Below are positions 22,681 through 23,068 of a stretch of 64,000 bases of DNA, in pieces. The DNA lies in assembly GCA_964016885.1 (NCBI GenBank), contig OZ024740.1, positions 116,064,001 to 116,128,000 of the forward strand, read 5' to 3'. The notes under the pieces were generated by a model. That model did not search any database and was not told where the DNA came from. It saw nothing but the letters and a program-made list of their open reading frames with translations. Within the stretch, counting starts at the first letter, position 1. The number at the start of each line of letters is the position of its first letter. The DNA is from Eledone cirrhosa (lineage: Eukaryota). A program made the translations under genes and the position numbers.

Positions 22681-23068
22681 TACCGGACTAGAATTGTTTC
22701 ATTCGGGAGATATCACCAGGAGAGCCCTGATGATTTATTTCGAGTGAAGCAGTTCAAGTCTTGTAGAAGCCATTTCTATATTAAATATTGTATATACTCT
22801 ACTATCTATTGAGTATCTTACTTAGTGTGATTACATATATATATACATATATACATATATATATATATATATACATATATATATATACATATATATATAT
22901 ACATATATATATATATATATATATATATATATACATATATATATATAAATACATATATATATATACATATACATATATATATATATATACGGTAAATTTC
23001 TTTAAGTCGTTTGGAAGCTCGACAATGAGTATCTTACTTAGTGTGATTACCTCCGATTGAACCCGGGA
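22681..23068. mobile_element. Family B fold-back element (HHR-core-like) containing a nested TSD-flanked insertion
   Basis: 22681-22720 is inverted relative to 22726-22765; homologous to 13489-13550 and 28955-29083; 25-bp duplication at 22810-22834 and 23026-23050. Confidence 0.7.

Follow-up and report, generated by a model that had tools for sequence, protein, structure and literature searches.

A TA microsatellite tract gained together with a retroelement end inside a 25-bp duplication, probably as a copy of an existing tract

A TA bias has been described for the Hydra and Naiad clades of Penelope-like elements (PLEs) (PMC8557442), and a preference for AT-rich targets has also been reported (PMC3124438). 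As outlined in PMC8557442, endonuclease-bearing PLEs with this bias (Hydra, Naiad and Neptune clades) resemble the DNA studied here, and the repeat family that we call N, in their pLTR-type pieces, an optional tail of 30–40 bp at either end, inverted 5'-truncated copies and insertion beside (TA)n. Their target-site duplications (TSDs) are often indiscernible in microsatellite targets, whereas the duplication seen in this case lies at a non-TA site and, at 25 bp, is also longer than the 8–10 bp given for Penelope TSDs in Adineta (PMC3846280). Recently active Penelope-like families occur in Octopus vulgaris (PMC13282606), in a report whose portion considered here contains no discussion of junctions. 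For PAc Poseidon, PMC11167929 describes two alternative ends separated by the tail, extension of both strands and nicking of AT-rich DNA, including pLTRs. Its two internal start sites for reverse transcription would explain both the tail-less end and the inverted tail of N, but predict a direct attachment of element to target, where here a 155-bp TA tract lies between.

Retroelements are established as a source and a carrier of microsatellites, through microsatellite birth, carriage and 3' transduction (PMC3812793, PMC7878876). These systems are alike in that a microsatellite appears at a new site with an element end, but in them the repeat is either poly(A) or internal to the element, whereas the donor here seems local; a 2013 review judged microsatellite transduction conceivable though unreported for L1 (PMC3812793). 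Slippage on 3' repeats in UnaL2 and the I factor (PMC3747384) is a precedent for a reverse transcriptase that lengthens a repeat tail, but those RNAs end in the repeat, whereas the unit of N is without a UA repeat here and the tract is impure. Repair synthesis yields tandem duplications and templated insertions at staggered breaks, where the bases between the nicks are duplicated around a copied insert with short microhomologies, as here, although those breaks were induced, in human cells (PMC11081867). Among mainly open-access papers, judged from their listings and from the passages cited here, we found no description of a TSD-flanked TA tract joined to a PLE end.

The window, that is the whole stretch of 64,000 nucleotides analysed, is crowded with (TA)n (125 tandem-repeat rows) and contains RT-bearing LINE fragments and short repeats wedged between TA tracts, a make-up which we take to resemble that of octopus genomes. 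The insert, its host element and its probable donor are laid out as follows.

22675–23068, plus strand: host element B, an inverted pair of hammerhead-bearing pLTR-like pieces, split by the insert, with TA tracts on both sides
22810–22834, no strand: left 25-bp direct repeat, probably a target-site duplication, exact match
22835–22989, no strand: new 155-bp TA tract with nine CA and one AA interruptions
22990–23025, minus strand: terminal 36 nt of element N, taken as its 3' end with the minus strand as sense
23026–23050, no strand: right copy of the 25-bp direct repeat, exact match
27310–28067, no strand: 758-bp interrupted TA tract, the right 150–200 bp or so being the probable template of the new tract
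28068–28385, minus strand: element N, the probable donor; its pLTR-like body contains, at about 28290–28305, a hammerhead-like stem II-GAAA, with ATTAAA just downstream
28398–28439, plus strand: optional tail of family N, about 41 nt, inverted at the 5' side of the copy, then TA
28956–29082, plus strand: B paralog in the empty-type configuration, holding a single 25-mer and no insert

The two repeats agree at 25 of 25 positions, with no extension of the match either way, and enclose 191 bp made up of the 155-bp TA tract and the 36-bp end of N, as the preliminary description had proposed. It had also matched the 36-bp terminus to 28069–28104; the identity holds, but the matching bases are 28068–28103, one base to the left, and together with the first two bases of the right repeat the match runs to 38 of 38 (28068–28105). 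The tract that the same terminus abuts there, put at about 760 bp, measures 758 bp. Both junctions of the insert show microhomology, 3 nt (TAC) between the new tract and the left repeat and 2 nt (TG) between the N end and the right repeat, which is weak evidence alone. Both 25-mers and the 36-mer are unmutated despite ten interruptions in the 155-bp tract.

In the paralogous B copy the 25-mer is present once, at 29035–29059, with three differences, in line with the preliminary description; this copy, which is a paralog and not an allele, is collinear with the interrupted copy on both sides of the insert and contains no TA tract. B itself contains an inverted pair at 22675–22770 by arm-to-arm alignment, and the hammerhead core is complete in the B copy at 13490; a hammerhead with an inverted-pair layout has been described for Penelope-like pLTRs (PMC4209133, PMC8557442). 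As a chance control, the flank of each tract was compared with the region beyond a distant tract, and seven of 5528 such pairs reached at least 25 bases. The insertion is real as assembled, young and TSD-like, and its TA tract probably moved together with a retroelement end. The evidence supports the gain of a TA tract at a non-TA site in one step, inside a TSD-like duplication. Given the polarity inferred for N, 36 nt of its 3' end were kept and its 5' side was truncated, as in TPRT. ATT motifs at or near both repeat boundaries were discounted, being too common in this DNA.

To characterise N we compared 28068–28439 with four public runs, excluding records that match human DNA. Matching records were found in all four. 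One sample supplied 2378 contigs (X1) and 2478 contigs (X2), a second sample of the species gave 2389 RAD reads, and 22 contigs came from a different organism. N is a dispersed, high-copy family whose ends mostly lie next to (TA)n, and the earlier claim of a real dispersed family holds on this comparison. Loose ends in TA occur at both sides of N with a consensus agreement of 0.59–0.88 among the loose ends listed, beside 377 others; one such end lies behind 28438 in 145 X11 reads, and most N copies depart from the window sequence at 28385. RAD read ends at 28073 and 28275 fall on the only two AATT sites in the segment compared and were rejected as element ends, and those at 28278 (beside an AATT site) and 28231 were likewise taken as restriction cuts.

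A variant at 28294 makes up >99% of the depth in X1 and X2 (236073 of 236945 in X1) and is carried by 490 of 515 X11 reads. On the minus strand it closes a 4-bp stem that precedes GAAA, with ATTAAA after it. We infer that the minus strand of N is sense, which makes the 36 bp in the insert its 3' end. In other copies the left end of N joins its tail, on the opposite strand, at 28069–28400 and 28071–28398 (X1, X2, X11 and X5), with further joints at 28088–28096. Joint depth puts tail-bearing copies at about 8–11% of the end bin in X1 and X2, and at 49 reads against a depth of 168 in X11. In the sense of N, the non-TA piece of about 41 nt directly follows the end with no TA between; in the window it lies inverted at the far side. 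As tail-bearing copies join the end straight to the tail, the unit of N itself is without (UA)n at this end. Both alternative ends of N abut TA, which fits TA targeting and TA addition alike.

N is likely a Penelope-like retroelement; this assignment stops short of proof because the 5' half of its hammerhead core is non-canonical (not CUGANGA) and no ORF is tied to it. Within the window no ORF adjoins N, and the sole match of a 43-aa minus-strand frame of N, a plant-type NB-ARC/LRR protein, was rejected as spurious. Rfam at gathering score returned no matches in the 64 kb, N and B included, and folding of four segments gave z-scores of −1.07 to 1.48, without signal. Exact N motifs were absent from metagenome, viral and prokaryote collections, as expected for an animal repeat. 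Hammerhead-core motifs (CTGANGA...GAAA) were seen in several repeat families at 27228–27252, 13490–13512, 19479, 20755, 19021, 18223, 21136 and 50198, none at the Rfam gathering score.

The window also contains a broken Hydra-clade PLE at 9465–12294 in a head-to-head layout.

9465–11329, minus strand: Hydra-type part 1, with pLTR, (TA)15, 5' UTR and RT
about 11471–11680, plus strand: Hydra-type part 2, the endonuclease end, with a pLTR also on the plus strand

The (TA)15 lies between the pLTR and the 5' UTR, inside the unit, so read-through RNAs with (UA)n are to be expected from it. PMC8557442 defines the Hydra clade by RWK-type and DKT motifs, a CxCX5C linker and a GIY-YIG domain at the C terminus. 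The ORF of this element (9465–11680) carries RWR and DKT; among its 83 homologs, of 707–854 aa, RW[KR] was found in 68, DKT in 74, CxCX5C in 61 and a GIY-YIG-like domain in 48. When these 83 proteins were used in tblastn, matches fell only at 9486–10969 and 11471–11611, and none at N. An inverted 5' UTR piece of the Hydra-type family at 28623–28697 ends in a perfect (AAT)16, against 3–4 units at 11015–11026, possibly through RT slippage or later expansion. Another PLE-like family, with an inverted-pLTR layout, is present at 23254–25063 and 37257–37632; in the former, arms at 23396–23568 and 24891–25063 are 100% identical and enclose a tandem pair of about 490 bp.

A second Penelope-like insert (57455–57999) also bears a flanking repeat: at 57438–58016 a 17-bp direct repeat flanks (TA)9, a 489-bp pLTR-like element and (TA)21, next to a short TA run. 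The repeat at 57438/58000 is a probable second TSD, with TA-like boundaries on both sides, and later slippage could explain the TA inside it. Other candidate TSDs, at 120/392 (9 bp) and 4389/4804 (13 bp), did not exceed chance expectation, the null rates being 0.43% and 0.16% for each of 114 tests.

We read the 191-bp insert as a copy of an existing TA/N junction, most likely that at about 27870–28105, 5 kb away, placed into a presumed staggered break, and give this reading a rough probability of 0.5. That the TA tract was copied, whether from this neighbour or from a dispersed read-through template, and not written, is in our judgement likely. Counted leftwards from the shared end, the interruptions of the insert are spaced 2, 6, 8, 15, 6, 6, 9, 3, 5 and those of the tract at 28068 are spaced 2, 6, 6, 6, 17, 5, 9, 5. 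With a score chosen after the tracts had been seen, and among non-independent anchors drawn from 11 other tracts in the window, the donor ranked 2 of 122, 2 of 113, 2 of 95 and 3 of 71 for two, three, five and eight spacings, respectively. Its spacing is thus an inexact match in the top 2–4% of window anchors; at three of the four settings another tract (13313 or 13994) equalled or exceeded its score, and the spacing pair (6,2) occurs in two of 84 triplets. Given this dependence among anchors and the retrospective choice of score, we regard the spacing as moderate evidence.

The shared 38-mer points to the same neighbour. Taking three polymorphic sites as independent, among 40 variants listed, its exact form is expected in 30% (X1), 35% (X2) and 11% (X11) of the copies that reach that end and in 1.2–3.5% of the whole N family, and a young subfamily would likewise give such identity. 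The base at 22990/28068 is common to insert and donor, though the joints between N and its tail stop at 28069 or later. Taken together, spacing and 38-mer favour an existing tract, and this neighbour especially, as the source that was copied. Ten interruptions beside unmutated 25-bp and 36-bp matches likewise fit the copying of an old tract, and the templated-tail option of the preliminary description agrees with this; a pure (TA)40 lies near the interrupted tract, at 22595.

The local event could have run in three steps. Two nicks 25 nt apart in the AT-rich element B would have left 3' overhangs, plausibly through a Penelope-type GIY-YIG endonuclease, given the AT-rich pLTR target, the nicking of such DNA on both strands by PAc and the 17-bp repeat at 57455–57999. 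One free 3' end may then have annealed by 2–3 bases in or beside the old TA tract, with 191 nt copied across the TA/N junction. Finally, the copied end would have rejoined the other overhang, fill-in duplicating 25 bases. As the copier we tentatively prefer DNA repair synthesis, since so near a donor is expected of repair and we have not found it described for retrotransposition; a Penelope reverse transcriptase acting on a local read-through RNA would be somewhat less likely. At 191 bp, with its source at 5 kb, the insert exceeds typical polymerase-theta inserts in both length and distance from the donor.

Local copying is argued from one event, and some of its evidence is open to other readings. 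The TAC microhomology is near trivial in a TA tract and 2 nt are weak. Ordinary retrotransposition also leaves short 3' fragments, as in the median 128-bp insertions reported for Chlamys (PMC9977147), and a 25-bp duplication with a very short 3' fragment would be expected of it too. Dispersed retrotransposition with 3' transduction could have placed the insert: a read-through RNA from another N copy in a TA tract would have been reverse transcribed from within (UA)n and truncated after 36–38 nt of N, leaving the 25-bp TSD, so that the tract was templated by a non-local donor. Read-through templates should be plentiful in a very high-copy family with ends mostly abutting TA, TSD and 5' truncation are the usual TPRT scar, the (TA)15 inside the Hydra-type unit at 9465–11329 leads one to expect such RNAs, and Penelope elements carrying simple repeats have been reported in shrimp (PMC7878876). 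This route needs both the 38-mer and the spacing match with the neighbour to have arisen by chance, however, unless one tract-bearing master gave rise to both, and we consider it unlikely, although it is the best placed of the alternatives to local copying.

More doubtful is the proposal that, at initiation, the reverse transcriptase of N generates (TA)n through telomerase-like, reiterative copying, in which case the apparent TA targeting would be partly self-made. N ends with and without the tail both abut TA, as fits addition as well as targeting, the second insert has (TA)9 and (TA)21 inside its 17-bp repeat, and the inverted Hydra-type piece has its (AAT)16 against 3–4 units in the source. 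PLE reverse transcriptases are sister to telomerase, and their TA bias is described as awaiting an in vitro test (PMC8557442); slippage of the UnaL2 kind (PMC3747384) is a further known precedent. The tract, however, is interrupted ten times beside unmutated flanks, its interruptions follow the regional polarity and the spacing of the neighbouring tract, and the unit of N is without a UA repeat at this end to reiterate. Moreover, one purified PLE initiates at internal, non-homologous sites, with no repeat addition mentioned in the part of that report considered here (PMC11167929). On these grounds the reiterative copying suggested in the preliminary description was not supported.

Nor was its family-specific (TA)n/(TATG) tail. 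TACATA outnumbers TATGTA by 154 to 20 in 13 long tracts and by 174 to 45 window-wide, and the CA polarity is common to 12 of the 13; the CA/TG polarity is therefore no signature of N, since CA on the plus strand is the regional norm, and tail-bearing ends join the 41-nt non-TA tail. Polarity was accordingly rejected as a marker of an N-specific tail and of A-to-I editing of a (UA)n template. The strand bias of (TA)n interruptions extends over 8000–32000 and 58784–58998, whatever the orientation of neighbouring elements, and may reflect a mutation bias (transcription/replication) or an assembly effect.

It is improbable that the 25-bp repeat is no TSD at all. On this reading a TA target would have received a B copy ending at 22834, and its TA tract would later have been entered by 36 nt of N and 43 nt of another B end, arranged head to head, or the whole would be one complex partial-tandem event. 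B copies do end beside TA at varied points (13549, 22675, 23068 and 29082), and TA-flanked head-to-head pairs of short element ends are common (28068–28439, 28625–28900 and 23254–25063). But B copies within the window differ by 12–25% and the paralog differs at three of the 25 bases, yet the two repeats are identical, and the halves of B on either side of the insert are jointly collinear with a single B copy. That the assembly was mis-joined through TA tracts is very improbable: the region is dense in long TA tracts and the 23025/23026 junction is known from the assembly alone, but an exact 25-bp repeat with collinear halves, and an N/B junction that is clean and lies outside the tract, would not be expected of such an error.

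With local copying as the preferred reading, the insert is a variant of known processes and by itself no evidence for telomerase-like microsatellite synthesis; as a single event for which copying of a pre-existing tract is the best explanation, it carries modest weight. The junctions of TA-biased PLEs are normally hidden in microsatellites, and an off-target event at a non-TA site exposes the 25-bp duplication. It also shows that one step can be enough to seed a long TA tract at a new site. Off-target events of this kind offer a direct, genome-wide test of whether the TA tracts beside these elements are targets, cargo or products. A wider proposal is that TA-biased PLEs make their own targets, a reverse transcriptase writing or carrying (TA)n into non-TA sites and duplications of 17–25 bp, invisible inside tracts, lengthening them with each insertion. 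If this were true, the elements themselves would partly create the TA target preference given in textbooks, and this would drive genomes towards richness in TA; we regard it as unlikely. The general feed-forward route put forward earlier draws on this case and on the ambiguous second one at 57438/58000.

Several other repeats were observed in the window. A candidate TSD at 19179/21004 was rejected as a segmental repeat. A cluster of direct and inverted segments of 96–100% identity occupies 18066–21069, either a complex local rearrangement or a multi-unit PLE insertion. A 405-bp repeat pair (25134–25538 and 53123–53527), 28 kb apart with 99.3% identity, belongs to a young family or is a local copy. 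Decayed LINE reading frames lie at 42666–47374, 60552–62953 and 5108–6129, two with Pfam RVT_1, and are presumably Tx1-like and RTE-like. At 40302–41358, a 14-bp unit is repeated in an array 74 times, with a strong C skew. At 238–312, a 29-bp tandem repeat (2.6 copies) including (TA)6 occupies the loop region of a palindromic repeat family, which is also present at 4598–4735, 9281–9465 and 13590–13796.
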